A DNA stretch of 51,111 bases, from the sequence record NC_049816.1. One strand, 5' to 3'. Both the position numbers and the translations under genes were made by a program. The notes under the pieces were generated by a model that made no database searches, was not told where the DNA came from, and saw only the letters and a list, made by a program, of their open reading frames with translations. Positions 12,715 to 50,350 of this stretch are shown one piece after another. Numbering within the stretch: the first letter of the stretch is position 1; each line of letters begins with the position of its first letter. Origin of the DNA: Escherichia phage tunus.

Positions 12715-12785
12715 CTTAAGATCTCCTTATAGCACTTTTTGTTAAAAGTGGAATTAATTTATTTGATAGATTGATTTTACAGGAA

Positions 12786-21118: not shown

Positions 21119-22687
21119 CTATTTATTGCGTAGACCAGCCAGCTTTTTCATCCTTGCTACCGGATCATCTGCCAAGTTCATTTCGACGTTAACAGCATCA
21201 ACTATATTATCGACAATATCATCATGGGGATGAGAATCGTCAAAAGTGAACGCTGCAACCTCTGCCAGTATCTCAGGTAACATGGGATGACTTTCTGGCA
21301 GTGCCACACGTCCGGCCCTCATTACTGGCGCGGCGTCCATTGCTCGCGTTACCTTGTCATTGCTTCGCTGAACGGGATTTATATCAATCGGGATCTTCTT
21401 TTTGGCCCCCTGAATCAAACCCGTGCCGCTGGCCTTATCCTCAATGTGGATACGTCGCAAGCTGCCACACTCCTTATTGCGCTTCCAGCACTGATTAACG
21501 AAGGCAATAAAATTTAATTCAAGATCCGGCGCTTCCCACTTTCCGCGAATGCCATCAATGAAGTAAACGCGATTCTTATACATCCCCCAATAACAAAAAA
21601 CTGAATAGTCGTTAAGCTCTCCGGCCTTCTGCGCGGTATCACCAGTAATAAATGTGTATTCAAAGCGATCCGGTTTAGGAAGTGCGCATTTTTCGCCGCT
21701 GCCGTAATACTGGAACCACTCTGTTTTAAACACGTTGCCGCCAAGCGCGATGGGTTGCTGTTGGTACTGACTGGCGAACGTATAAGGATCTGCATTGCGC
21801 AATGCAAGCAATTCCTCCGCGCTTTCCTTCGCAGGCCAAAATGAATAATGAGCAACGCCATCTATCATCACTGGCTTACTTGACAACACATCACGATCAA
21901 ATTCAGGCTTCAACCAATCAGGAAGCGTTTCGCGGTATTCTTTCGTAACCAGCGCCGGAATACTCACAACTTTAAACTCAATACCACCCATCCCGCCATT
22001 AAGCATAAACCAGGTGGAATCATTAACGTGTAGTCGCTGTTGCACCATAACAATCGGCGTAGTGTCTTTCATTCGACGCGATCGCACTGTGTTTTTTAAC
22101 CGCATGTGGATCGCCTCACGCTTGACCTTAGAAAGCATATCATCAGGCTTGTCTGGATCGTCCAGAACCAGCATACCAGTAAAACCATCATCCATATAGC
22201 CGCCACGCAAACCTGTTACCTGTCCGCCAATAGAACGTGAGTTAACTTGCAATTTAACCTTGCCGCCATCCGTAACTATGAGATCTTTTGCGCTCGCCTT
22301 TGCCAGTTTTCCTGGCCATAGCTCTTGCCACTCAGGAGAACCGATAATCTCCTTTATCCTGTTGCTGTTTTGCTGGACAAGTCCATCACTAAACGAAAGG
22401 TTAAGGTTTCTCACCTTCCGACTTTTCAATGACGCGTAGGGTGACATGTGGATCGAGAAAATCTCAGTCTTACCGCTACCTGGCGTAATGTTGAAAATCA
22501 CATTCTGCGACTCTCCATTGATGATCTTCTCTACCTCACTGCACAATAAGCTAAAATGCCAGTTGCTCTGGAATTTTTGCCCCTGCAATAACTGAAACCA
22601 GATTCTGATCATCTTTTCGAATGAATGCTCACTGATTTCTTTAATGGCTCGCTTTTGCGCCGCCGTCAAATCTTCCCATATGATCAT
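21119..22687 (-). CDS. Terminase large subunit
   Basis: 522 aa; Walker A NITPGSGKTE; start overlaps small subunit stop (TAATG). Confidence 0.9.
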   Translation of the reverse strand: MIIWEDLTAAQKRAIKEISEHSFEKMIRIWFQLLQGQKFQSNWHFSLLCSEVEKIINGESQNVIFNITPGSGKTEIFSIHMSPYASLKSRKVRNLNLSFSDGLVQQNSNRIKEIIGSPEWQELWPGKLAKASAKDLIVTDGGKVKLQVNSRSIGGQVTGLRGGYMDDGFTGMLVLDDPDKPDDMLSKVKREAIHMRLKNTVRSRRMKDTTPIVMVQQRLHVNDSTWFMLNGGMGGIEFKVVSIPALVTKEYRETLPDWLKPEFDRDVLSSKPVMIDGVAHYSFWPAKESAEELLALRNADPYTFASQYQQQPIALGGNVFKTEWFQYYGSGEKCALPKPDRFEYTFITGDTAQKAGELNDYSVFCYWGMYKNRVYFIDGIRGKWEAPDLELNFIAFVNQCWKRNKECGSLRRIHIEDKASGTGLIQGAKKKIPIDINPVQRSNDKVTRAMDAAPVMRAGRVALPESHPMLPEILAEVAAFTFDDSHPHDDIVDNIVDAVNVEMNLADDPVARMKKLAGLRNK

Positions 22688-24410: not shown

Positions 24411-24480
24411 TAAATCACCTTACCAGAAAAATAGCTCGTTAGAATGCGATTTAGGCGCTCTAACGGCTATGCGTTTTTAA

Positions 24481-24795
24481 TTAAAAACCGTCGAGAATCT
24501 CTCGGAAGTTGTTTAGCGTCTTAACTTTGGCCTTATCCCACGTTACAGATCCTGCATCTTCCCACGGGGAACCAGGGCCGTGATTTGTCATATCATCAAT
24601 CAAGCAAGAGATCTCATCAATAACAACATCTTTTAAATGCTCGCGGTACTCAATATCTTCTACAGGCTCAAAAGCCTGAATGACACCTCCTAAAACCTGT
24701 TGCTGCGCCTTTGCCTTGTCCAAATCATCATGGATGAAACGATGCTCTTTCTTGTTCTCGTTAGTTCCGATTTGGTAGTAGTGAATGTAAATCAT
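24481..24795 (-). CDS. Hypothetical protein
   Basis: ATG at 24795 with RBS GGAGGA and ATGA overlap. Confidence 0.4.
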   Translation of the reverse strand: MIYIHYYQIGTNENKKEHRFIHDDLDKAKAQQQVLGGVIQAFEPVEDIEYREHLKDVVIDEISCLIDDMTNHGPGSPWEDAGSVTWDKAKVKTLNNFREILDGF

Positions 24796-25296: not shown

Positions 25297-25342
25297 ACTT
25301 TACCAAATGCCCTTGCGGAAGTTTTAACAAAAAGTGCTATTA
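25297..25342 (-). promoter_or_regulatory. Phage promoter module (box + 19-bp hairpin spacer + TAAAGT)
   Basis: Box AAATAGCACTTTTTGTTAAAA read on minus strand; spacer palindrome AAGGGCA...TGCCCTT. Confidence 0.5.
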
Positions 25343-30642: not shown

Positions 30643-30688
30643 ATTATGCCTGGTTATCGCTTTTGAGTTTTAACAAAAAGTGCTATTT
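30643..30688 (-). promoter_or_regulatory. Phage promoter module (box + 19-bp spacer + CATAAT)
   Basis: Exact box AAATAGCACTTTTTGTTAAAA on minus strand. Confidence 0.5.
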
Positions 30689-31104: not shown

Positions 31105-31150
31105 TATTATGCCAGGCTTCGCGCCTGGCGTTTTAACAAAAAGTGCTATT
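31105..31150 (-). promoter_or_regulatory. Phage promoter module (box + 19-bp hairpin spacer + CATAAT)
   Basis: Exact box; spacer palindrome CGCCAGGCgcgaaGCCTGGC; transcript would begin near CATCGAAACGAG. Confidence 0.5.
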
Positions 31151-32491: not shown

Positions 32492-32537
32492 AAATAGCAC
32501 TTTTTGTTAAAACTCAGGCCACCTGATCGGGTACATT
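32492..32537 (+). promoter_or_regulatory. Phage promoter module (box + 19-bp spacer + TACATT)
   Basis: Exact box; transcript would start near the conserved CATCGAAACGAACC. Confidence 0.5.
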
Positions 32538-32880: not shown

Positions 32881-32924
32881 ATAGCACTTTTTGTTAAAAG
32901 CTGATCGGGATAACCTGGTATAGT
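32879..32924 (+). promoter_or_regulatory. Phage promoter module (box + 19-bp hairpin spacer + TATAGT)
   Basis: Exact box; spacer palindrome GGGATAAC...GTTATCCC; followed by CATCGAAACGAACC. Confidence 0.5.
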
Positions 32925-34185: not shown

Positions 34186-34229
34186 ATAGCACTTTTTGTT
34201 AAAAACGATGCGCTGCTGATTGGTATAGT
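34184..34229 (+). promoter_or_regulatory. Phage promoter module (box + 19-bp hairpin spacer + TATAGT)
   Basis: Exact box; spacer palindrome GATGCGCT...AGCGCATC. Confidence 0.5.
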
Positions 34230-35396: not shown

Positions 35397-36107
35397 ATGT
35401 ATAAAGGTTTAATATTCTCCCTATTTGATGGATCTGGTAAAGCCGTTAAAGATTGGGCTGATAATGGCTATAAGTGCATTTGCTTTAATGCTGACGGCGG
35501 CGATCACGGTGATTACCAGTCAGTGCGCATACAGCATGAGAATATCGAATACGTTAACGTCTGGATTGATGATGCTTTTTATGTTAAGGCAATCAATAAT
35601 GAGTGGGGCAATCCTGATTTTATTATGGCCTTCCCACCATGCACCGACCTTGCAAATAGCGGATCTCGCCATTGGGCTAAAAAGCGCCTTAAAAATCCAT
35701 CTTTCCAGGATGAGGCCGCCGACACTTGCAGAATCGCGGCTGATATAGCTGATTATTTCGGTGTTCCATACATGATCGAAAATCCGGTTGGCAAGTTGTC
35801 AACGTTATGGCGAAAGCCTGATTATACGTTCCATCCGTGCGATTACGCTAGCTATCTGCCGGAAGATGATAAACATCCCGACTTCCCTGATATTATTCCG
35901 GCGCGGGATCGCTATTTTAAGAAAACATGCCTCTGGACTGGCAACGGCTTTGTTATTCCTCCACGCGCTTTAATCCTGCCGAAAGAGAAAGACAAAGATA
36001 ATCCAGGCTGGGCCAAAACTGGCGGCAATTCATCGCGCACAAAGATGATCCGCTCCCTCACTCCGCGCGGCTTTGCTCGCGCCGTCTTTGAGTCAAACTC
36101 AAAATAG
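35397..36107 (+). CDS. DNA cytosine-C5 methyltransferase-like protein (short, core motifs only)
   Basis: ATG at 35397 with RBS GAGGT; motif I-like FSLFDGSG, motif IV-like FPPC, motif VI-like ENPVGKL in canonical order and spacing; no obvious target-recognition domain. Confidence 0.55.
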   Translation: MYKGLIFSLFDGSGKAVKDWADNGYKCICFNADGGDHGDYQSVRIQHENIEYVNVWIDDAFYVKAINNEWGNPDFIMAFPPCTDLANSGSRHWAKKRLKNPSFQDEAADTCRIAADIADYFGVPYMIENPVGKLSTLWRKPDYTFHPCDYASYLPEDDKHPDFPDIIPARDRYFKKTCLWTGNGFVIPPRALILPKEKDKDNPGWAKTGGNSSRTKMIRSLTPRGFARAVFESNSK

Positions 36108-36147
36108 CACTTTTTGTTAAAAGCCAGGTGTAAAAACCTGGCATAAT
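36102..36147 (+). promoter_or_regulatory. Phage promoter module (box + 19-bp hairpin spacer + CATAAT)
   Basis: Exact box; spacer palindrome CCAGGtgtaaaaaCCTGG. Confidence 0.5.
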
Positions 36148-38937: not shown

Positions 38938-38983
38938 GAATAGCATTTTTTGTTAAAACTCCCGACCTTGTGTCGGGTATATT
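38938..38983 (+). promoter_or_regulatory. Phage promoter module (box + 19-bp hairpin spacer + TATATT)
   Basis: Box variant gAATAGCATTTTTTGTTAAAA; spacer palindrome CCCGACcttgtgTCGGG; followed by CATCGAAACGAACC. Confidence 0.5.
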
Positions 38984-39020: not shown

Positions 39021-39245
39021 ATGTCCAGCAAGTTTTTAGTAGTTCGCGTATACAATCATGCAAATGGATCTTCTTCTGAAATCCCGACAGTTTACGATAA
39101 GGATTCAGGCTGGAGTGAGCAATCGGCGGTTGAAAATGAGCGCAAGATTGCAGGACTATACGGCGACACTTGCAGCATTGAAGTAAGGCAGTACGACGAA
39201 TATAACAAACCAACAAACGAAAGCCATACGTGGCCCGACGCATAA
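39021..39245 (+). CDS. Hypothetical protein
   Basis: ATG at 39021 (MSSKFLVV) with purine-rich RBS. Confidence 0.4.
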   Translation: MSSKFLVVRVYNHANGSSSEIPTVYDKDSGWSEQSAVENERKIAGLYGDTCSIEVRQYDEYNKPTNESHTWPDA

Positions 39246-39280
39246 AAATAAAGGAGGCATTAAGCCTCCTTTTTCTTTTC
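39244..39280. terminator. Bidirectional intrinsic terminator between convergent units
   Basis: AGGAGGCattaaGCCTCCT with A-run upstream and T-run downstream; overlaps the spanin 3' end. Confidence 0.6.
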
Positions 39281-39655
39281 TATCCAGTAAAGACAAATCA
39301 GCACAAGAAACACAACCACGCATATGATTACTGGATCGTACCATCTGCCGTTATTACCCTGCACGACCTGAATTTTGTCTGCCTTGATGGTATTGGCCTG
39401 AATGGTTGATGTTGTGAAATCCTTCTTGCTGGACGTGTCCACCTTGTCAACCGCAGATTCCTTTATTGTGGTTTCCTGTTTTGTGCTGGCGTCCTGCTTT
39501 GCTGTAATGCCAACTGTCTGCTTCACGTTCTCCGCTCCAGCCTGTGCTGTGATTTCCGGCTTACTGCCGATTAATCCGGTCAGTGGCGTAACGCTTGAAC
39601 ATCCAGACAAGATCACCGCCATTGCGATTGGTGTAAGTAAAAAATTCTTCATCAT
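39260..39655 (-). CDS. Unimolecular spanin (lipoprotein with C-terminal transmembrane anchor)
   Basis: Signal peptide with lipobox LSGC, periplasmic Lys/Thr-rich region, C-terminal TMD; last gene of lysis cassette. Confidence 0.7.
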
Positions 39656-40143
39656 TTCAGATCCATTGTGCAATATTTGTATTCGACCTTGCGCCTGTTA
39701 AGTAAGCCTTTAGACTTCTCGCGCTTTCCTGTTTTTGGGTTATGGTAATAAGTCCAACGATAAAGCTGATCGCAAGCCTCGTTTAATTTCCCCTGGTTTA
39801 TGAGTTTCAGCATTGTTGAATTTCTGAAAGCTCCCACACCTGCATTGTAAGTGAATGAGTACATTGCTGCACGCATACTATCAGGAATGTAAACCTTAAC
39901 TTGCTTGTCAACTTCCTTTTTAGCAACCTGGATATGCTTAGCCAACAAAGCATCACACTCTTTTTTAGTGTACGTTTTCCCCAGGATAACATCTGGTCCG
40001 GTGATTCCTGCGCAAACCGTCCATACTCCCGCAATATCTTTGTATGGCTTGTATCTTACCCCTTCGATCTCTTCAAGAAGTGGAGAAGTCAAGGCAACCG
40101 CAACGCCAAAGGCCGCAGCCGCTACCCTGTTCTTTATGCTCAT
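39652..40143 (-). CDS. SAR endolysin (GH24 / T4-lysozyme-type muramidase with signal-arrest-release N-terminus)
   Basis: 163 aa; weakly hydrophobic Ala/Gly-rich N-terminus followed by catalytic E-x8-D/C-x5-T-like lysozyme motif. Confidence 0.75.
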
Positions 40144-40358
40144 TACTTGCCCCTGATTTCAATAGCTTTTTGAATATCACCTTTTTCGATCGCTTCGTGG
40201 AATTTTTTACTATCACGCCAGCGAAGGTAAGCGCCCCATGCACCGAATGCAGCCATTAAAACAAAGCTGGCAATAGCAATGGTTAACTGCCCTGTAGCGG
40301 CGCTTGCGATAGATGAACCGCCAGATCCAGCGGTAGCTGCGTTAATAAAATCTTTCAT
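40143..40358 (-). CDS. Pinholin-type holin
   Basis: 71 aa with two TMDs, the first Gly/Ala/Ser-rich; basic C-terminus; immediately upstream of SAR endolysin. Confidence 0.65.
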
Positions 40359-40381
40359 TTTTATTCTCCATATTAATTAAA

Positions 40382-40395
40382 GTCAATATATTGAC
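40382..40395. promoter_or_regulatory. 14-bp perfect palindrome GTCAATATATTGAC upstream of holin (candidate operator)
   Basis: Exact inverted repeat about 25 nt upstream of the holin start. Confidence 0.3.
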
Positions 40396-40504
40396 CGCAT
40401 GATAAACGTACATGGTAAAAAAATTAAACAAAAAAAAGAGGCGACAAACGCCGCCCCCTTGCAAGTTTTTGATTTAATTTGTCATTGATTTAAATAAAAA
40501 TTCA

Positions 40505-41620
40505 TCAATTCATCATTTCTGGATAGTGAACAAATCGCCCAACCTCTCCATGCTCTTTGTCGTAAATGATAACCGCCGCGCGGCGTCGAGATCGCCAGCC
40601 ACCGCGCGCTGCGTATGCGTCTTTTGCCGCCAGGGTGCTATGTACTTCCACGATGCCAAGCGACGTTTCCGTTACGGTCTGGTGATGCCAATGCCCTACG
40701 TGCGCATACATCGTTTTTGAGTTTCCGAAGTCCTCCCGCCAATCGGACGCGCACATCATTAGCAACGTTTCAGGCTTTCGCACTGTGTGCCCGTGATGGT
40801 ACGCAAGGAAAGTTTTTCCGTATTGCGTGTGGTGCACAACGCGAGGGGAAACATCAACGTAAACGCGCGGCTCGTTTTCATATGCTGCCGCCATTGCTGC
40901 GCGTAGCCAAATCATTCCTGATTGGTCATGATTGCCCTCTACGATCTGGACTTCAACATGTTTATGCTTTAACAACATTTTATTGATTGCGCGTCGCATT
41001 GCACGGATGGCAACGTAAACCAATTTTGCATATCGACTATCTTGATCCAGTACGTGACCGCTTGCAGGTGTAACCGCCTCCAGGCCGTCGCTATGCAGCA
41101 TATCGCCACCAATCAGGATGACAGCCTTTTCGCTATCCGGTGCGCACATTAAAGCATAGTCGATAAAGTTATTCATAACGCGCTCTGCCGTGGCAGTATC
41201 CCAATTTTCGCCGCATTCGTGCTTATGGGCCATAGCGCCTAAGTGCATGTCAAAGATCGGATACAAGGAAAGCGTTTCGTTATAGTCGCGCTCCTGTAAT
41301 GGGACCGGATCTAATCGCGGAACTTCCTCGCTAAATGCCTCCATTGCTGCGCGCATTAATGCTTCTAATTGCTCTTTATCCTTGCTGGTTTTAGTCCACT
41401 TTAGGATTATGTTGCCTTCTTTGTCAGTCATTACTGACTCACCATGAACGCCAAAACCAGGCGCTCCAATGGTGGATACCTGGCCTTGCTTTGCAAGACG
41501 CGCCGCGCGACGCTCGACGCTTCTCACATTCATTCCGTACTCTTGAGCGATCTGTTTATATGTCTTACCAGCCGCCCGTTCGATCTTGAATTGCTCATCT
41601 GTAATTTTTACATTTTTCAT
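40505..41620 (-). CDS. HTH domain - calcineurin-like metallophosphoesterase fusion protein
   Basis: ATG at 41620; N-terminal HTH (TYKQIAQEYGMNVRSVERRAARL); metallophosphatase motifs DMH, GDMLH, GNHD, GHWH. Confidence 0.6.
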   Translation of the reverse strand: MKNVKITDEQFKIERAAGKTYKQIAQEYGMNVRSVERRAARLAKQGQVSTIGAPGFGVHGESVMTDKEGNIILKWTKTSKDKEQLEALMRAAMEAFSEEVPRLDPVPLQERDYNETLSLYPIFDMHLGAMAHKHECGENWDTATAERVMNNFIDYALMCAPDSEKAVILIGGDMLHSDGLEAVTPASGHVLDQDSRYAKLVYVAIRAMRRAINKMLLKHKHVEVQIVEGNHDQSGMIWLRAAMAAAYENEPRVYVDVSPRVVHHTQYGKTFLAYHHGHTVRKPETLLMMCASDWREDFGNSKTMYAHVGHWHHQTVTETSLGIVEVHSTLAAKDAYAARGGWRSRRRAAVIIYDKEHGEVGRFVHYPEMMN

Positions 41621-41714
41621 TCTGCTACCTATCTCATCACTATATGGTACATAACTGTAACAGCGATGATAACGGGTAACGGTAGAACAAACAAGCGCCA
41701 CATGATAACTATCC

Positions 41715-41957
41715 TCATTTATAATATTTGCGAGGCTCTCGGATTTTAGCCATTGCCTCTTTGAAATCAATTTTTGTTGGAACTGCTGGAACTCTTACCA
41801 TTTTTCGCGGCCTTTCCTTGAGGAAAGTCATCTTGTCGCCGCTAATTATGCTCACATCTGCAATATCAAAGTATTGCGCGATCTTCTTTATGTCGTCGGC
41901 AATACCGCATTCTTTAGCGTGATTCCATACCGCATCTCTTCCTTGCTCAACCTTCAT
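41715..41957 (-). CDS. Hypothetical protein
   Basis: ATG at 41957 overlapping stop of upstream microprotein. Confidence 0.4.
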   Translation of the reverse strand: MKVEQGRDAVWNHAKECGIADDIKKIAQYFDIADVSIISGDKMTFLKERPRKMVRVPAVPTKIDFKEAMAKIREPRKYYK

Positions 41958-42158: not shown

Positions 42159-42204
42159 ATTATGCCCGACACTAGGCCGGGCGTTTTAACAAAAAGTGCT
42201 ATTT
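42159..42204 (-). promoter_or_regulatory. Phage promoter module (box + 19-bp hairpin spacer + CATAAT)
   Basis: Exact box; spacer palindrome CCCGGCctagtgtCGGG. Confidence 0.5.
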
Positions 42205-43207: not shown

Positions 43208-43253
43208 ATTATGGCGCAATCCATCGCGCCAGTTTTAACAAAAAGTGCTATTT
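43208..43253 (-). promoter_or_regulatory. Phage promoter module (box + 19-bp hairpin spacer + CATAAT)
   Basis: Exact box; spacer palindrome GGCGCGATggattGCGCC. Confidence 0.5.
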
Positions 43254-47319: not shown

Positions 47320-49293
47320 ATGGCGATTTACAGACAAGGCCAAGCGTCTATGGACGCGCAAGGTTATGTAACTGGTTACGGTACAAAATGGCGTGAGCAA
47401 TTAACCTTGATTCGCCCAGGTGCAACTATTTTCTTTCTTGCTCAACCTTTGCAAGCTGCTGTGATTACAGAAGTGATTAGCGATACAAGCATTCGCGCAA
47501 TTACTACTGGCGGCGCGGTAGTACAGAAGACAAATTACCTGATCTTGCTTCATGACTCGTTAACGGTTGACGGTCTTGCGCAAGACGTAGCGGAAACGTT
47601 GCGTTATTACCAGGGGAAGGAATCGGAGTTTGCTGGATTTATTGAGATCATCAAGGATTTTGATTGGGATAAGCTACAGAAGATCCAGGAAGACGTAAAG
47701 ACAAATGCTGACGCAGCCGCAGCAAGCCAGAAGGCAGCTAAAACTAGCGAGAATAACGCAAAGACAAGCGCAACAAATGCAGAGAATAGCAAGAAAGGTG
47801 CTGACACTGCAAAGGCTGCCGCTGAATCCGCGCGCGACGCTGCAAACACTGCAAAGACTGGCGCTGAAGCAGCAAAGTCTGGCGCTGAATCCGCGCGTGA
47901 CGCTGCGAACACTGCAAAGGCAGGAGCTGAAAGTGCGCGAGATCAAGCGGAGGAATACGCAAAGCAGGCCGCAGAACCTTACAAGGACTTATTGCAACCG
48001 TTGCCGGACGTGTGGATACCATTTAATGATTCCCTGGATATGATTACCGGATTCTCGCCGTCATACAAAAAGATTGTCATAGGTGACGATGAGATCACGA
48101 TGCCAGGCGACAAGATTGTCAAATTTAAACGTGCATCAACCGCTACTTACATTAATAAGTCTGGAATGTTTACCGTTGCTGATATTGATGAACCACGTTT
48201 TGAACGTGATGGCCTGCTTATTGAGGGGCAAAGAACGAACTACATGCTCAATTCGGAAAGCCCTGCCAGTTGGGGGCGATCGTCAAATATGGATGTTCCC
48301 GAAACCGGGAAGGATAGTTTTGGTTTTACCTATGGAAAGTTTGTCTGTAACGATTCTCTGATTGGGCAAACCTCAGCCATTAATATGGCATCAATTGCTG
48401 CAACAAAGTCAGTTGATGTCTCAGGCGATAATAAATACGTGACAACCTCATGTCGTTTTAAAACAGAACTGCAGGTAAGGTTGCGTATCCGATTTGATAA
48501 ATATGACGGTAGCGCAACAACTTTTCTTGGTGATGCGTATATTGATACACAAACGCTTGAAATTAATATTACAGGCGGTGCTGCATCAAGGATTACCGCA
48601 AGAGCTAAAAGAGATGATGTTACTGGCTGGGTTTTTGCGGAAGCTACAATACAGGCTGTTGATGGTGAGATAAAAATAGGATCTCAAATACAATATGCAC
48701 CACAGGAAGGTGGTGCAACTGTATCTGGTGATCACATATATCTTGCAACTCCACAGGTAGAGAATGGGTCTTGTGTTTCTTCATTTATTATTTCTGGGGT
48801 GAATGCAACTACAAGGGCAAGCGATATGGTTACAGTGCCAATAAAAAACAACCTTTACAATTTGCCGTTTACAGTTCTTGTGGAGGCTCACAAAAACTGG
48901 AGTAGGACTCCAAATGCTGCGCCTCGTGTTTTTGATACTGGAGGTCATCAATATGGTGCGGCAATTATTCTTGCTTTCGGATCTGCCGAGGGCGATAATG
49001 ATGGATTCCCTTATTGCGATATAGGTGGATCAAACAGAAGGGTTTACGAGAATGCAAAACTAAAAAAGATGATCATGGGAATGAGAGTAAAGAGTGATTA
49101 CAATAATTGCTGTGTAAGTAATGCCAGAATATCAAGCGAAACAAAAACGGAATGGAGATATATAGTATCAACGGCTAATATAAGGATTGGCGGACAAACA
49201 AGTACAGGCGAACGCCATCTTTTCGGGCACGTTAGAAACTTCCGTATATGGCACAAGGCACTAACAGATCATCAATTGGGGGAAATTGTATAA
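47320..49293 (+). CDS. Tail fibre protein (side / L-shaped fibre candidate)
   Basis: About 657 aa, RBS AGGAGG; Ala-rich repeats then beta-rich C-terminal domain. Confidence 0.7.
   Translation: MAIYRQGQASMDAQGYVTGYGTKWREQLTLIRPGATIFFLAQPLQAAVITEVISDTSIRAITTGGAVVQKTNYLILLHDSLTVDGLAQDVAETLRYYQGKESEFAGFIEIIKDFDWDKLQKIQEDVKTNADAAAASQKAAKTSENNAKTSATNAENSKKGADTAKAAAESARDAANTAKTGAEAAKSGAESARDAANTAKAGAESARDQAEEYAKQAAEPYKDLLQPLPDVWIPFNDSLDMITGFSPSYKKIVIGDDEITMPGDKIVKFKRASTATYINKSGMFTVADIDEPRFERDGLLIEGQRTNYMLNSESPASWGRSSNMDVPETGKDSFGFTYGKFVCNDSLIGQTSAINMASIAATKSVDVSGDNKYVTTSCRFKTELQVRLRIRFDKYDGSATTFLGDAYIDTQTLEINITGGAASRITARAKRDDVTGWVFAEATIQAVDGEIKIGSQIQYAPQEGGATVSGDHIYLATPQVENGSCVSSFIISGVNATTRASDMVTVPIKNNLYNLPFTVLVEAHKNWSRTPNAAPRVFDTGGHQYGAAIILAFGSAEGDNDGFPYCDIGGSNRRVYENAKLKKMIMGMRVKSDYNNCCVSNARISSETKTEWRYIVSTANIRIGGQTSTGERHLFGHVRNFRIWHKALTDHQLGEIV
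47815..47945 (+). repeat. In-frame 63-bp tandem repeat inside tail fibre gene
   Basis: Two near-identical 36-bp cores GCTGAATCCGCGCG(C/T)GACGCTGC(A/G)AACACTGCAAAG at 47821 and 47884. Confidence 0.5.
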
Positions 49294-49583: not shown

Positions 49584-50321
49584 ATGGCTACAGTCACTGT
49601 TATACCTAGTGATATAACGAAGCTGAAAAATGACGTTTCAACACTAAAACAGGATGTTGCTACTATTCCTGGTGATATAACGAAGCTGAAAAGTGATGTT
49701 TCGACACTAAAACAGGATGTTGCAGGAAAAGCATCAACTGCTGATGTTGACAATAAGTTGAAACCGTATCTAAAACAAACTGATCTATCATCCGAGTTGG
49801 GTAGCGGAAGGTATAGTGGGAGTTTTTACCCCCTAACTGGTAACGATGCATTTTATTTATTTAATATTAACACAACCGCTCAATCAGCAAACTTATGGCT
49901 TGATCCAAATGCTGGAGTGTCGCAAGTTTTACGCTCAACTTCCTCTTCTCGTTATAAGCGCAGCGTAGAATCGGTTATTGATGAATATGCGGATCTGATG
50001 CTTGAAATGCGTCCTGTGTGGTATCGGTCAACTTGTGAAAGCGACCGTAAAGATTGGGGATGGTACGGACTGATTGCAGAGGAAGTTGGAGAGGTTGCGC
50101 CGGAGTACGTTCACTGGCGACCTCTGCAAGAAGGAGAAGATCCTGCCATTGCTTCAAGTAATGGCATGGTGGCGGAAGGCGTTATGTATGACCGCCTCAC
50201 TGTTCCACTGATTCACCACGTTAAGAAACTGAAAGCGGAAAACGATGAGATGAGAAAAGAAATTGACGAGCTAAAAGCGGTTGTAGAGGCACTGGTAAAC
50301 AAACCAACCACGTTAGACTAA
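49584..50321 (+). CDS. Tail fibre/spike protein with C-terminal intramolecular chaperone-like domain
   Basis: 245 aa, RBS AAGGAG; N-terminal 21-aa tandem repeat; C-terminus (DWGWYGLIAEEVGEVAPEYV...) resembles self-cleaving chaperone domains of fibre proteins. Confidence 0.6.
   Translation: MATVTVIPSDITKLKNDVSTLKQDVATIPGDITKLKSDVSTLKQDVAGKASTADVDNKLKPYLKQTDLSSELGSGRYSGSFYPLTGNDAFYLFNINTTAQSANLWLDPNAGVSQVLRSTSSSRYKRSVESVIDEYADLMLEMRPVWYRSTCESDRKDWGWYGLIAEEVGEVAPEYVHWRPLQEGEDPAIASSNGMVAEGVMYDRLTVPLIHHVKKLKAENDEMRKEIDELKAVVEALVNKPTTLD
49605..49730 (+). repeat. In-frame 63-bp tandem repeat (2 copies) inside fibre gene
   Basis: Direct repeat about 90 percent identical, period 63 bp, encoding IPxDITKLKxDVSTLKQDVA twice. 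Confidence 0.6.
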
Positions 50322-50350
50322 AAAATGCCCCGCATATGCGGGGCTTTTTG
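50322..50350. terminator. Bidirectional intrinsic terminator between fibre gene and ssb
   Basis: GCCCCGCAtaTGCGGGGC with A5 upstream and T5 downstream. Confidence 0.65.

Follow-up and report, generated by a model that had tools for sequence, protein, structure and literature searches.

T1-type lysis cassettes

The unimolecular spanin (u-spanin) that serves as prototype is gp11 of phage T1, and it is for T1 gp11 only that complementation of the lambda Rz/Rz1 lysis defect has been shown (PMC6139136). In T1 (Tunavirus T1, NC_005833), the gp11 gene follows those of the holin gp13 and the SAR endolysin gp12, the three products measuring 133, 71, and 162 aa, respectively. Cassettes of the same type are described in Kongari 2018 (PMC6139136), in a paper on TLS (PMC11447400), and in one on KanT1 (PMC13164509), the last of which reports the order exonuclease–holin–endolysin–spanin in 508 of 522 Drexlerviridae. 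The naming as pinholin, SAR endolysin, and u-spanin is already present in GenBank records and papers.

The DNA analyzed here, a stretch of 51,111 nucleotides from Escherichia phage tunus (NC_049816.1) that is called the window throughout, is a complete Warwickvirus-type genome (Drexlerviridae, T1-like) with 98-99% nucleotide identity to deposited phages. Among Warwickvirus genomes, this level of identity holds over 1.7 kb spanning the lysis cassette and the spacer upstream of it. Both are essentially no different from those of the deposited phages G3B1, tunzivis, tinuso, JLBYU01, swan01, SECphi27, and PeterMerian/Bas05 (98-99% identical), and deposited Warwickvirus records annotate the cassette as holin, endolysin, and "putative unimolecular spanin". 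The three-gene cassette is real and previously described. The region is very probably a standard T1-type lysis cassette of a Warwickvirus coliphage, with a 14-bp palindrome upstream of the holin gene that is incidental and not a dyad-symmetric operator. Its significance is small and lies mainly in correct annotation, the module being a textbook T1-type arrangement found in more than 500 Drexlerviridae genomes.

Gene arrangement and comparison with T1

The original prediction described a cassette of holin, SAR endolysin, and unimolecular spanin whose genes are tightly coupled, with overlapping stops and starts. Its composition is borne out by family matches for all three proteins, with E-values of 1e-32 to 1e-54 that lie far beyond chance, and by homology to the T1 proteins at 44-65% identity (55% to gp13, 65% to gp12, and 44% to gp11). 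All three genes are on the minus strand, which the prediction did not mention. The genes and the terminators that flank them are as follows.

40435..40460, minus strand: intrinsic terminator with an 11-pair stem and a T8 run, located between the genes for exonuclease and holin; from a terminator scan
40358..40143, minus strand: holin, 71 aa, starting MKDF; full-length match to phrog_2877 holin, E = 3.8e-32
40143..39652, minus strand: predicted SAR endolysin, 163 aa, GH24 (T4-lysozyme-type) muramidase, R21 type; PF00959, E = 1e-38, and phrog_7 endolysin, E = 2e-54
39655..39260, minus strand: predicted unimolecular spanin, 131 aa, T1-gp11 family; phrog_1804 Rz-like spanin, E = 1e-46
39250..39272, no single strand assigned: bidirectional terminator hairpin AAAGGAGGC-ATTAA-GCCTCCTTT; from a terminator scan of both strands and sequence reading

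The coupling is likewise present at both junctions: the holin stop and the endolysin start share one base (TAATG), and the endolysin stop overlaps the spanin start by 4 nt (ATGA). Overlaps of this kind would link the three genes translationally. Intrinsic terminators lie on both sides of the cassette. The downstream hairpin is common to the end of the spanin gene and a convergent gene at 39022..39245, and its stem encodes the last codons of the spanin together with its stop; the T1 record annotates a terminator at the equivalent place.

T1 has the same gene order and similar protein sizes. Like the present phage, it has coupled stop and start codons, a hairpin with a T-run before the holin gene, a terminator after the spanin gene, and an exonuclease gene upstream. 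The two differ in the region between exonuclease and holin, where T1 carries genes for an HNH endonuclease and for a small SH3-type product (ST14), whereas the present phage has a bare 146-nt spacer. T1 also lacks both the palindrome and a TTGAC block that are found in this spacer.

The SAR endolysin

The endolysin is 65.4% identical to T1 gp12. Its residues 2-159 align with residues 4-161 of R21 in PDB 3HDE (E = 8e-46), and the alignment runs end to end, SAR segment included; R21 also has the PDB entry 3HDF. The catalytic triad E27-D36-T42, with Glu-8aa-Asp-5aa-Thr spacing, aligns to the Glu, Asp, and Thr of R21 in 3HDE. The N-terminus consists of a basic stretch, MSIKNR, followed by a 17-residue hydrophobic segment. 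This segment is weakly hydrophobic (53% G/A/S/T, KD19 1.44, dGapp about +2.1) and contains no Cys.

Whole-length homology to R21 that extends through the SAR segment argues for the SAR type originally proposed, and the N-terminal segment is predicted to be an uncleaved SAR domain of the R21 type. Because this segment has no Cys, refolding of the R21 type would be expected rather than the disulfide isomerisation of P1 Lyz. Between the SAR segment and the catalytic Glu, the present protein has a linker 6 residues shorter than that of R21, in which the triad is E35, D44, and T50 by the customary numbering. Phage 21 also differs from this phage in its spanin, which is a two-component Rz/Rz1 system and not a u-spanin.

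The unimolecular spanin

The spanin ATG at 39655 opens a 131-aa product beginning MMKNF. An upstream TTG at 39673, which appears in the list of open reading frames, is probably not the start, since relatives annotate a gene of 396 nt. The product is 44.3% identical to T1 gp11 over 131 aa, its full length (E = 5e-39), and so lies within the u-spanin family threshold, set at 40% identity or more across 40% or more of the length (Kongari 2018, PMC6139136). The lipobox is LSGC (Cys19, with Ser, a non-Asp residue, at +2), the same as that of T1 gp11. A C-terminal TMD spans residues 108-125 (KD19 2.68, dGapp(17) -5.2) and is accompanied by a basic tail, EKKKEA, predicted to be cytoplasmic. The only Cys residues are C19 in the lipobox and C111 and C118 within the TMD, leaving the periplasmic domain Cys-free; all u-spanins are reported to be without periplasmic Cys (PMC6139136).

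The gene is the last of the cassette, placed after the endolysin gene and before the terminator. Its homologues occur in 1078 phage records, many of them labelled u-spanin, and the orthologues in JLBYU01 and PaulSarasin carry that annotation. The lipobox, the TMD, and the homology to T1 gp11 together favor the single-component reading put forward at the outset, that of a lipoprotein with a C-terminal TMD.

The holin and the pinholin label

The holin is 54.9% identical to T1 gp13 over 71 aa. Hydropathy gives it one firm TMD (residues 25-45), a G/A/S/T-rich N-terminal segment (residues 4-23), and a charged C-terminal tail, with only TGQ between the N-terminal segment and the TMD. The N-terminal segment resembles TMD1 of S21 68 in hydrophobicity (80% G/A/S/T; dGapp +7.8 versus +6.4 for S21 TMD1).

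In size and hydropathy pattern, with one strong TMD preceded by a weak segment at the N-terminus, the protein is like S21 68 of phage 21. It differs in that its two hydrophobic segments are not separated by a polar loop and that it has no detectable sequence similarity, BLASTP giving no alignment to S21 68 at E <= 10. Its sequence family is that of phrog_2877 and T1 gp13, not that of the phage 21 S holin, and no Pfam or NCBIfam holin family is matched at E <= 0.1. The gene adjoins the SAR endolysin gene and is translationally coupled to it, as pinholins are paired.

Pinholins of the S21 68 type have two TMDs, the first being a SAR-like segment that exits the membrane, and their holes are small (about 2 nm), enough for depolarisation but not for release of a soluble endolysin. 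For homologues of the present holin, sources differ on the number of TMDs, the T1 record giving a single TMD and the TLS paper two (PMC11447400). The pinholin label in the literature rests on bioinformatics, and literature searches returned no experimental report on any T1-group holin. For the present protein, the designation as a holin stands, given the phrog_2877 match and the homology to T1 gp13. The narrower term pinholin is plausible as a label drawn from context; the hydropathy is S21-like, without S21 sequence similarity.

Proposed course of lysis

Homology to characterised proteins allows the functional steps of lysis to be tentatively assigned. Within the inner membrane, the 71-aa holin would build up and then, at a fixed moment, collapse the membrane potential. 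By then, the endolysin would have been exported by Sec and would lie inactive, tethered through its weakly hydrophobic N-terminal SAR segment. Depolarisation would cause the SAR segment to leave the bilayer, leading to R21-like refolding and cleavage of the peptidoglycan. The spanin is expected to bridge the two membranes, with the lipid on Cys19 in the outer membrane and the C-terminal helix in the inner one. Once freed from the murein mesh, it would disrupt the outer membrane, probably via fusion of both membranes.

The palindrome upstream of the holin gene

The palindrome and the ribosome-binding site next to it lie in the spacer at the following positions.

40382-40395, no strand assigned: perfect 14-bp palindrome GTCAATATATTGAC, lineage-specific; from sequence reading
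40369..40366, minus strand: holin ribosome-binding site (RBS) GGAG, 7 nt before the ATG; read in the sequence

The palindrome exists as originally noted, with its near end 23 nt upstream of the holin ATG and just before the GGAG RBS, which relatives keep as GGAG or GAGG. It had been put forward as a candidate operator for the timing of lysis. Under such a reading, a dimeric helix-turn-helix (HTH) protein of phage or host would occupy both arms and time lysis-gene transcription, candidates being, for instance, a host factor or the N-terminus of the upstream exonuclease-like protein, which bears an HTH. The perfect dyad symmetry immediately 5' of the RBS is in keeping with this, as is a weak sigma-70 region 4/HTH match at residues 66-97 of the neighboring 421-aa ORF. 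The local probability of such a palindrome arising by chance in the 146-nt, 28% GC spacer is about 0.024 before multiple testing, which also speaks for an operator. Genome-wide, however, the number of palindromes this long is about what chance predicts: the window contains 5 perfect ones of 14 bp or more, and first-order Markov simulations give 3.9 +/- 2.0. A probability of 0.024 is unremarkable over the several dozen gene-upstream spacers of a ~51-kb genome, a figure that is an estimate (relatives annotate about 80-90 features). When up to 2 mismatches are allowed, the window still contains neither a further copy of the palindrome nor a half-site partner for it, and the obvious repeated regulatory element of the phage is a different, non-palindromic 21-mer.

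Comparison with relatives also weighs against an operator. In mar001J1, JLBYU26, and PeterMerian, all of them isolated and propagated phages, the left arm carries a C-to-T change at minus-strand position 40393 (GTTAAT for GTCAAT) without compensation. These three also have TATTAT where the window has TATCAT. The base-by-base comparison from which they come covered five Warwickvirus relatives in GenBank, four of them picked as the most divergent. The palindrome is intact in all three IMG/VR contigs that carry the locus, a number too small for population counts. No palindrome of at least 8 bp is present at the site in BEK7, Jahat, PaulSarasin, AS5, Samwise, RCIP0096, TLS, or T1, which together make eight genomes from six further lineages; in AS5, Samwise, and TLS, a TTGAC direct repeat takes its place.

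An AT-rich palindrome with a CAAT-WW-ATTG core is found near the same place in both Warwickvirus and Hanrivervirus. The Hanrivervirus palindrome, CAATTAATTG, differs from that of the window and lies a few nt away, and its shared CAAT..ATTG core counts in favor of an operator. A 14-bp palindrome, AACAATTAATTGTT, also occurs near the same place in pSf-1. Some weak selection for dyad symmetry may have acted in Warwickvirus and Hanrivervirus. The palindrome is not conserved even in close relatives, and so the operator label is unsupported. With its chance frequency, its single copy, an arm broken without compensation, and its absence from most related lineages, a function as a lysis-timing operator is highly improbable. 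It is best read as having arisen incidentally, extending a conserved ATTGAC[A/T]TTT block in a lineage-specific way. That it should not be pursued as a regulatory candidate is a useful negative outcome.

The same sequence could act at the RNA level, as a hairpin in the holin 5' leader that tunes translation initiation or mRNA stability in the manner of the lambda S sdi. A 5-bp stem with a 4-nt loop does appear in both the MFE and centroid folds, and the TLS paper, which reports an inverted repeat upstream of the holin gene, suggests dual-start regulation (PMC11447400). Lambda S, too, has an inverted repeat and an intrinsic terminator just upstream of the holin gene. The lambda sdi, however, governs a Met1/Met3 dual start, whereas the present holin begins at a single Met (MKDF...) and thus offers no alternative start to regulate. 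Shuffled sequences fold as well as the leader or better in 156 of 200 cases (z = +0.73), and the stem leaves the RBS untouched. There is no covariation, RNAalifold predicts no pair at this position, and the natural, uncompensated C-to-T change replaces a C-G pair with a weaker U-G wobble. We consider the chance that the palindrome works as such a hairpin to be very slight, and prefer its reading as an incidental extension of the conserved block.

An IHF site (WATCAANNNNTTR) was also considered at this locus and rejected as inconsistent. Inspection by eye shows a perfect match in herni and aalborv (AATCAATTAATTG), 1-2 mismatches in the window, and no such site in BEK7, PaulSarasin, and AS5.

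Conserved signals in the spacer

Two further elements of the spacer, in addition to the terminator, are conserved among relatives.

40379..40387, minus strand: conserved block ATTGACTTT, containing a -35-like TTGAC[A/T]; from alignments of relatives and TLS
40399..40404, minus strand: TATCAT, candidate -10 element; conserved TAnnAT block (GGTTAnnAT in relatives)

The right arm of the palindrome, ATTGAC[A/T]TTT, stands at a fixed 28 nt from the holin ATG in most sampled Tempevirinae, while the left arm is not conserved. TTGAC is kept where the palindrome is lost, except in RCIP0096 and T1. A genome-wide search for ATTGACWTTT, whose output omitted the window's own copy, returned one unrelated match, at 976-985, which is about the number expected by chance; the arm gives no apparent sign of being a genome-wide motif.

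One reading takes TTGAC[A/T] as the -35 element of a sigma-70 promoter (TTGACT, 17-18 nt, TAAAAA or AAAAAT). TTGACT-18-AAAAAT is the sole sigma-70-like match on the coding strand of the spacer (9/12), and the hexamers 17-18 nt downstream of TTGAC fit TAnnnA in most lineages (TAATCA, TAAATA, TAAAAA). The matching -10 would overlap the holin start codon, and transcripts would therefore begin inside the first holin codons and encode the endolysin and spanin without the holin, yet a SAR endolysin expressed without its holin offers no evident benefit. The -10 candidates are poor, lacking the final T, and their apparent conservation is confounded by the spacer between RBS and ATG. Promoter-like matches in the region number 4 against 6.5 expected from shuffles, RCIP0096 and T1 are without TTGAC, and the promoter scan turned up nothing in the spacer that would make a convincing sigma-70 promoter with a usable start. 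A promoter of this kind is improbable.

A dedicated lysis-gene control site in Tempevirinae, made up of ATTGAC[A/T]TTT and the lineage-specific inverted repeats and serving as a binding or pause site together with the upstream terminator, is very unlikely. If it were real, holin timing could be set via regulated read-through or a special promoter, in line with the absence from this cassette of the promoter-associated repeat described below.

The TAnnAT block is kept in all 16 relatives compared, T1 and TLS included, in the forms TATTAT, TAGGAT, TAAAAT, TAGTAT, TAACAT, and TAATAT. No convincing -35 accompanies the TATCAT of the window, which may represent the -10 of a weak lysis-gene promoter. 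The terminator at 40435..40460 has an RNA fold of -17.6 kcal/mol (z = -3.7), a value that none of 200 shuffled sequences reached. No other structure appears in the RNAalifold consensus of 10 relatives, and compensatory changes occur in six of its seven pairs. The terminator of lambda lies downstream of the late promoter (pR'-tR') and is overcome by Q, whereas here neither a Q homologue nor promoter architecture of the Q type came to light, though without a systematic search. The terminator, the TAnnAT block, and the TTGAC block most likely constitute a weak promoter with a 5' leader, and holin expression would be set by these in combination with read-through of the terminator. The unit from which such read-through would reach the cassette starts at the repeat at 42184-42202.

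Transcription in T1-like phages is poorly mapped, and literature searches returned no transcript maps of Drexlerviridae; the arrangement of terminator, TAnnAT, and TTGAC, along with the genome-wide 21-nt repeat, provides elements of interest in this respect. A standard copy of the 21-nt repeat was also sought in the spacer. Only a degenerate and unconvincing resemblance is seen, upstream of the terminator (11/19 by eye; ATAGCAT in T1). Among the transcription units of the genome, only that of the lysis genes is without the standard ATAGCAC...TTGTTAAAA promoter-associated repeat.

Lysis cassette

The tunus lysis cassette is a T1-type module of holin (a putative pinholin), SAR endolysin and unimolecular spanin (u-spanin) that is already known. 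It lies within the genome of a T1-like virulent siphophage. Some 60 Escherichia and Shigella phages in sequence databases, including G3B1, tunzivis, tinuso, JLBYU01, swan01 and SECphi27, are 97–99% identical to the window over the 1.7 kb compared around the cassette, and are classified in Drexlerviridae, Tempevirinae, Warwickvirus. The module is already annotated in near-identical GenBank records, and the order exonuclease, holin, endolysin, spanin is found in 508 of 522 Drexlerviridae (KanT1 paper, PMC13164509).

Features of the lysis region
40505-41770, minus strand: exonuclease-like gene (phrog_704, E = 8e-149)
40460..40435, minus strand: intrinsic terminator, 11-pair stem and T8
40404..40399, minus strand: TAnnAT block (usually GGTTAnnAT), TATCAT in tunus
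40382-40395: palindrome GTCAATATATTGAC, ending 23 nt short of the holin ATG, directly 5' of the GGAG ribosome-binding site
40358..40143, minus strand: holin, 71 aa
40143..39652, minus strand: endolysin, 163 aa
39655..39260, minus strand: spanin, 131 aa, its ATG overlapping the endolysin stop, start as annotated in relatives
39250-39272, both strands: bidirectional terminator hairpin, common to the spanin gene and a convergent 74-aa gene (39022..39245)

Family matches and alignments to T1 and to the phage 21 endolysin R21 agree with the original prediction of a holin, SAR endolysin and u-spanin cassette. The tight coupling it described is also present, as a 1-nt overlap (TAATG) between holin and endolysin and a 4-nt overlap (ATGA) between endolysin and spanin. 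Locally, tunus departs from T1 and several Tempevirinae only in lacking, at 40359-40504, the small SH3-type gene (55–58 aa) that they carry between exonuclease and holin; a small ORF occupies this interval in T1, BEK7, Jahat, PaulSarasin, AS5, Samwise and RCIP0096.

Twenty GenBank "Campylobacter phage" records with Campylobacter jejuni as host, including MG065638, MG065657, MG065681 and MG065673, have a T1-like lysis region of the Hanrivervirus type, ~70% identical to the window. These seem to be Drexlerviridae coliphage genomes, which would make the host label doubtful.

Lysis proteins

The holin has a full-length match to phrog_2877 (holin; E = 4e-32) and shares 54.9% identity with the T1 holin, gp13. 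Its designation as a pinholin is plausible. The hydropathy profile resembles that of a pinholin, with one firm transmembrane domain (TMD) at residues 25–45 and an N-terminal segment (4–23) composed of 80% Gly/Ala/Ser/Thr, whose crude insertion energy is +7.8; TMD1 of the phage 21 pinholin S21 68 has +6.4 on the same scale. However, no polar loop separates the two segments, the protein has no sequence similarity to S21 68, and no family match was found among Pfam or NCBIfam holin models. Existing descriptions vary: the T1 GenBank record labels gp13 single-TMD, the TLS paper gives a two-TMD prediction and "proposes" class II pinholin status (PMC11447400), and Kongari 2018 (PMC6139136) and the KanT1 paper (PMC13164509) apply the pinholin label to the entire T1 group. 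A literature search found no hole-size experiments for this holin type. Because its partner is a SAR endolysin, "pinholin" is reasonable by context as a putative label.

The endolysin matches Pfam Phage_lysozyme (E = 1e-38) and is 65.4% identical to T1 gp12, the T1 SAR endolysin. Residues 2–159 align with 4–161 of full-length R21, the SAR endolysin of phage 21 (PDB 3HDE, E = 8e-46), spanning the N-terminal hydrophobic segment (R21 counterpart AVAAAIGGGAIAIASVLI) and the E27-D36-T42 triad. This segment follows K4 and R6 and is weakly hydrophobic (KD19 1.44; free energy of insertion approximately +2 kcal/mol), which is the SAR pattern. R21 is controlled by refolding, and P1 Lyz represents the disulfide type. 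As the tunus segment contains no Cys, R21-type refolding control would be expected rather than the P1 Lyz type.

The spanin matches phrog_1804 (E = 1e-46) and is 44.3% identical to T1 gp11, the T1 u-spanin, over its full length, above the 40%/40% spanin family threshold (Kongari et al. 2018, PMC6139136). It shares the LSGC lipobox of T1 gp11, has Ser at +2 and no periplasmic Cys, and ends in a strongly hydrophobic helix (108–125) followed by KKKEA. Lipobox, helix and gp11 identity together bear out a single-component spanin, a lipoprotein with a C-terminal TMD. Homologues occur in 1078 phage records (tblastn), many labelled u-spanin. The last three codons and stop (K-E-A-stop) are encoded within the stem of the 39250-39272 hairpin.

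Palindrome upstream of the holin

A perfect palindrome does lie just 5' of the holin start, as originally noted, but its proposed role as an operator timing lysis is not supported. Five perfect palindromes of 14 bp or longer occur in the window, versus 3.9 ± 2.0 in first-order Markov simulations. The others are at 50327-50344 (GCCCCGCATATGCGGGGC, which looks like a terminator stem), 21791-21806 (TGCATTGCGCAATGCA), 24473-24488 (GTTTTTAATTAAAAAC) and 47573-47586 (GTCTTGCGCAAGAC). The chance of one such palindrome in the 146-nt, 28% GC spacer alone is 0.024, unremarkable when a genome this size has several dozen upstream spacers. The window holds no second copy of GTCAATATATTGAC at up to 2 mismatches.

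The holin-upstream region was aligned from 16 relatives. The palindrome is intact in the close Warwickvirus genomes JLBYU01 and Poky; mar001J1, JLBYU26 and PeterMerian carry GTTAATATATTGAC, with a left-arm C-to-T that the right arm does not compensate. Breakage in three of five close relatives is not a population frequency, four of the five having been chosen as the group's most divergent. PeterMerian is Bas05, a well-propagated BASEL phage. Hanrivervirus genomes (herni, aalborv, pSf-1) have a different palindrome, CAATTAATTG (AACAATTAATTGTT in pSf-1), shifted 3 nt. AS5, Samwise and TLS carry a direct TTGAC repeat in place of a palindrome, and palindromes of 8 bp or more are absent from the equivalent position in BEK7, Jahat, PaulSarasin, RCIP0096 and T1. 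RNAalifold on ten representatives predicts no pairs at the palindrome, and shuffled sequences fold just as well as the leader RNA (z = +0.73). Given these results, selection on the dyad is not detectable.

Conserved signals and transcription unit

The terminator preceding the holin folds at -17.6 kcal/mol (z = -3.7). Its stem varies among lineages yet stays paired, with double changes in six of seven consensus pairs (RNAalifold), and T1 and TLS have a hairpin and T-run at the matching position. The TAnnAT block reads TATTAT, TAGGAT, TAAAAT, TAGTAT, TAACAT or TAATAT elsewhere, and T1 also has it. The spacing between the ATG and the palindrome's right arm, ATTGAC[A/T]TTT, is 28 nt in most of the Tempevirinae sampled and 29–30 nt in mar001J1, PeterMerian and JLBYU26; the arm's TTGAC block is TTAAC in RCIP0096 and absent from T1. 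TAnnAT may be the -10 of a weak promoter, with TTGAC falling within the early transcribed leader. The sole sigma-70-like match using TTGAC as a -35 puts the -10 on the start codon and is incapable of holin expression.

A 21-nt direct repeat, AAATAGCACTTTTTGTTAAAA, has ~20 oriented copies in the genome (22 matches versus 2.6 expected), always aligned with the local direction of transcription.

Examples of AAATAGCACTTTTTGTTAAAA copies
12729-12747, 32494-32512, 32881-32899, 34186-34204, 36104-36122, 38940-38958: plus strand
25322-25340, 30668-30686, 31131-31149, 42184-42202, 43233-43251: minus strand

After 17–19 nt comes a hexamer resembling TATAAT, TATAGT or CATAAT, in many cases TGn-extended; a variable, compensating inverted repeat occupies the gap. 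A gene start comes next, its start codon ~65–85 nt past the beginning of the repeat. The unit looks like a phage-specific promoter in which the repeat, centred near -40, replaces the -35. The TLS paper (PMC11447400) describes this same 21-nt direct repeat.

The lysis region has a copy on either side, at 38940 (+) and 42202 (-), but the interval from terminator to holin contains none; thus, the cassette occupies the distal end of a minus-strand unit, its own promoter at most weak. This unit runs from the repeat at 42202 through two small genes, the exonuclease-like gene, the terminator and the cassette to the bidirectional terminator. The exonuclease-like gene is annotated as "DNA repair exonuclease" or phosphoesterase, with starts that differ among relatives (1116, 1197 or 1266 nt). 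Weak Pfam and PHROG matches to transcriptional regulators mark an N-terminal HTH or sigma-70 region 4-like segment (residues ~57–98) fused to its metallophosphatase domain.

Tandem repeats of in-frame length also occur, at 47778-47942 (63-nt units with 21/42-nt sub-periodicity) and 49601-49723 (two 63-nt units, 92% identical), probably within the gene of a structural protein, for instance a tail fibre.
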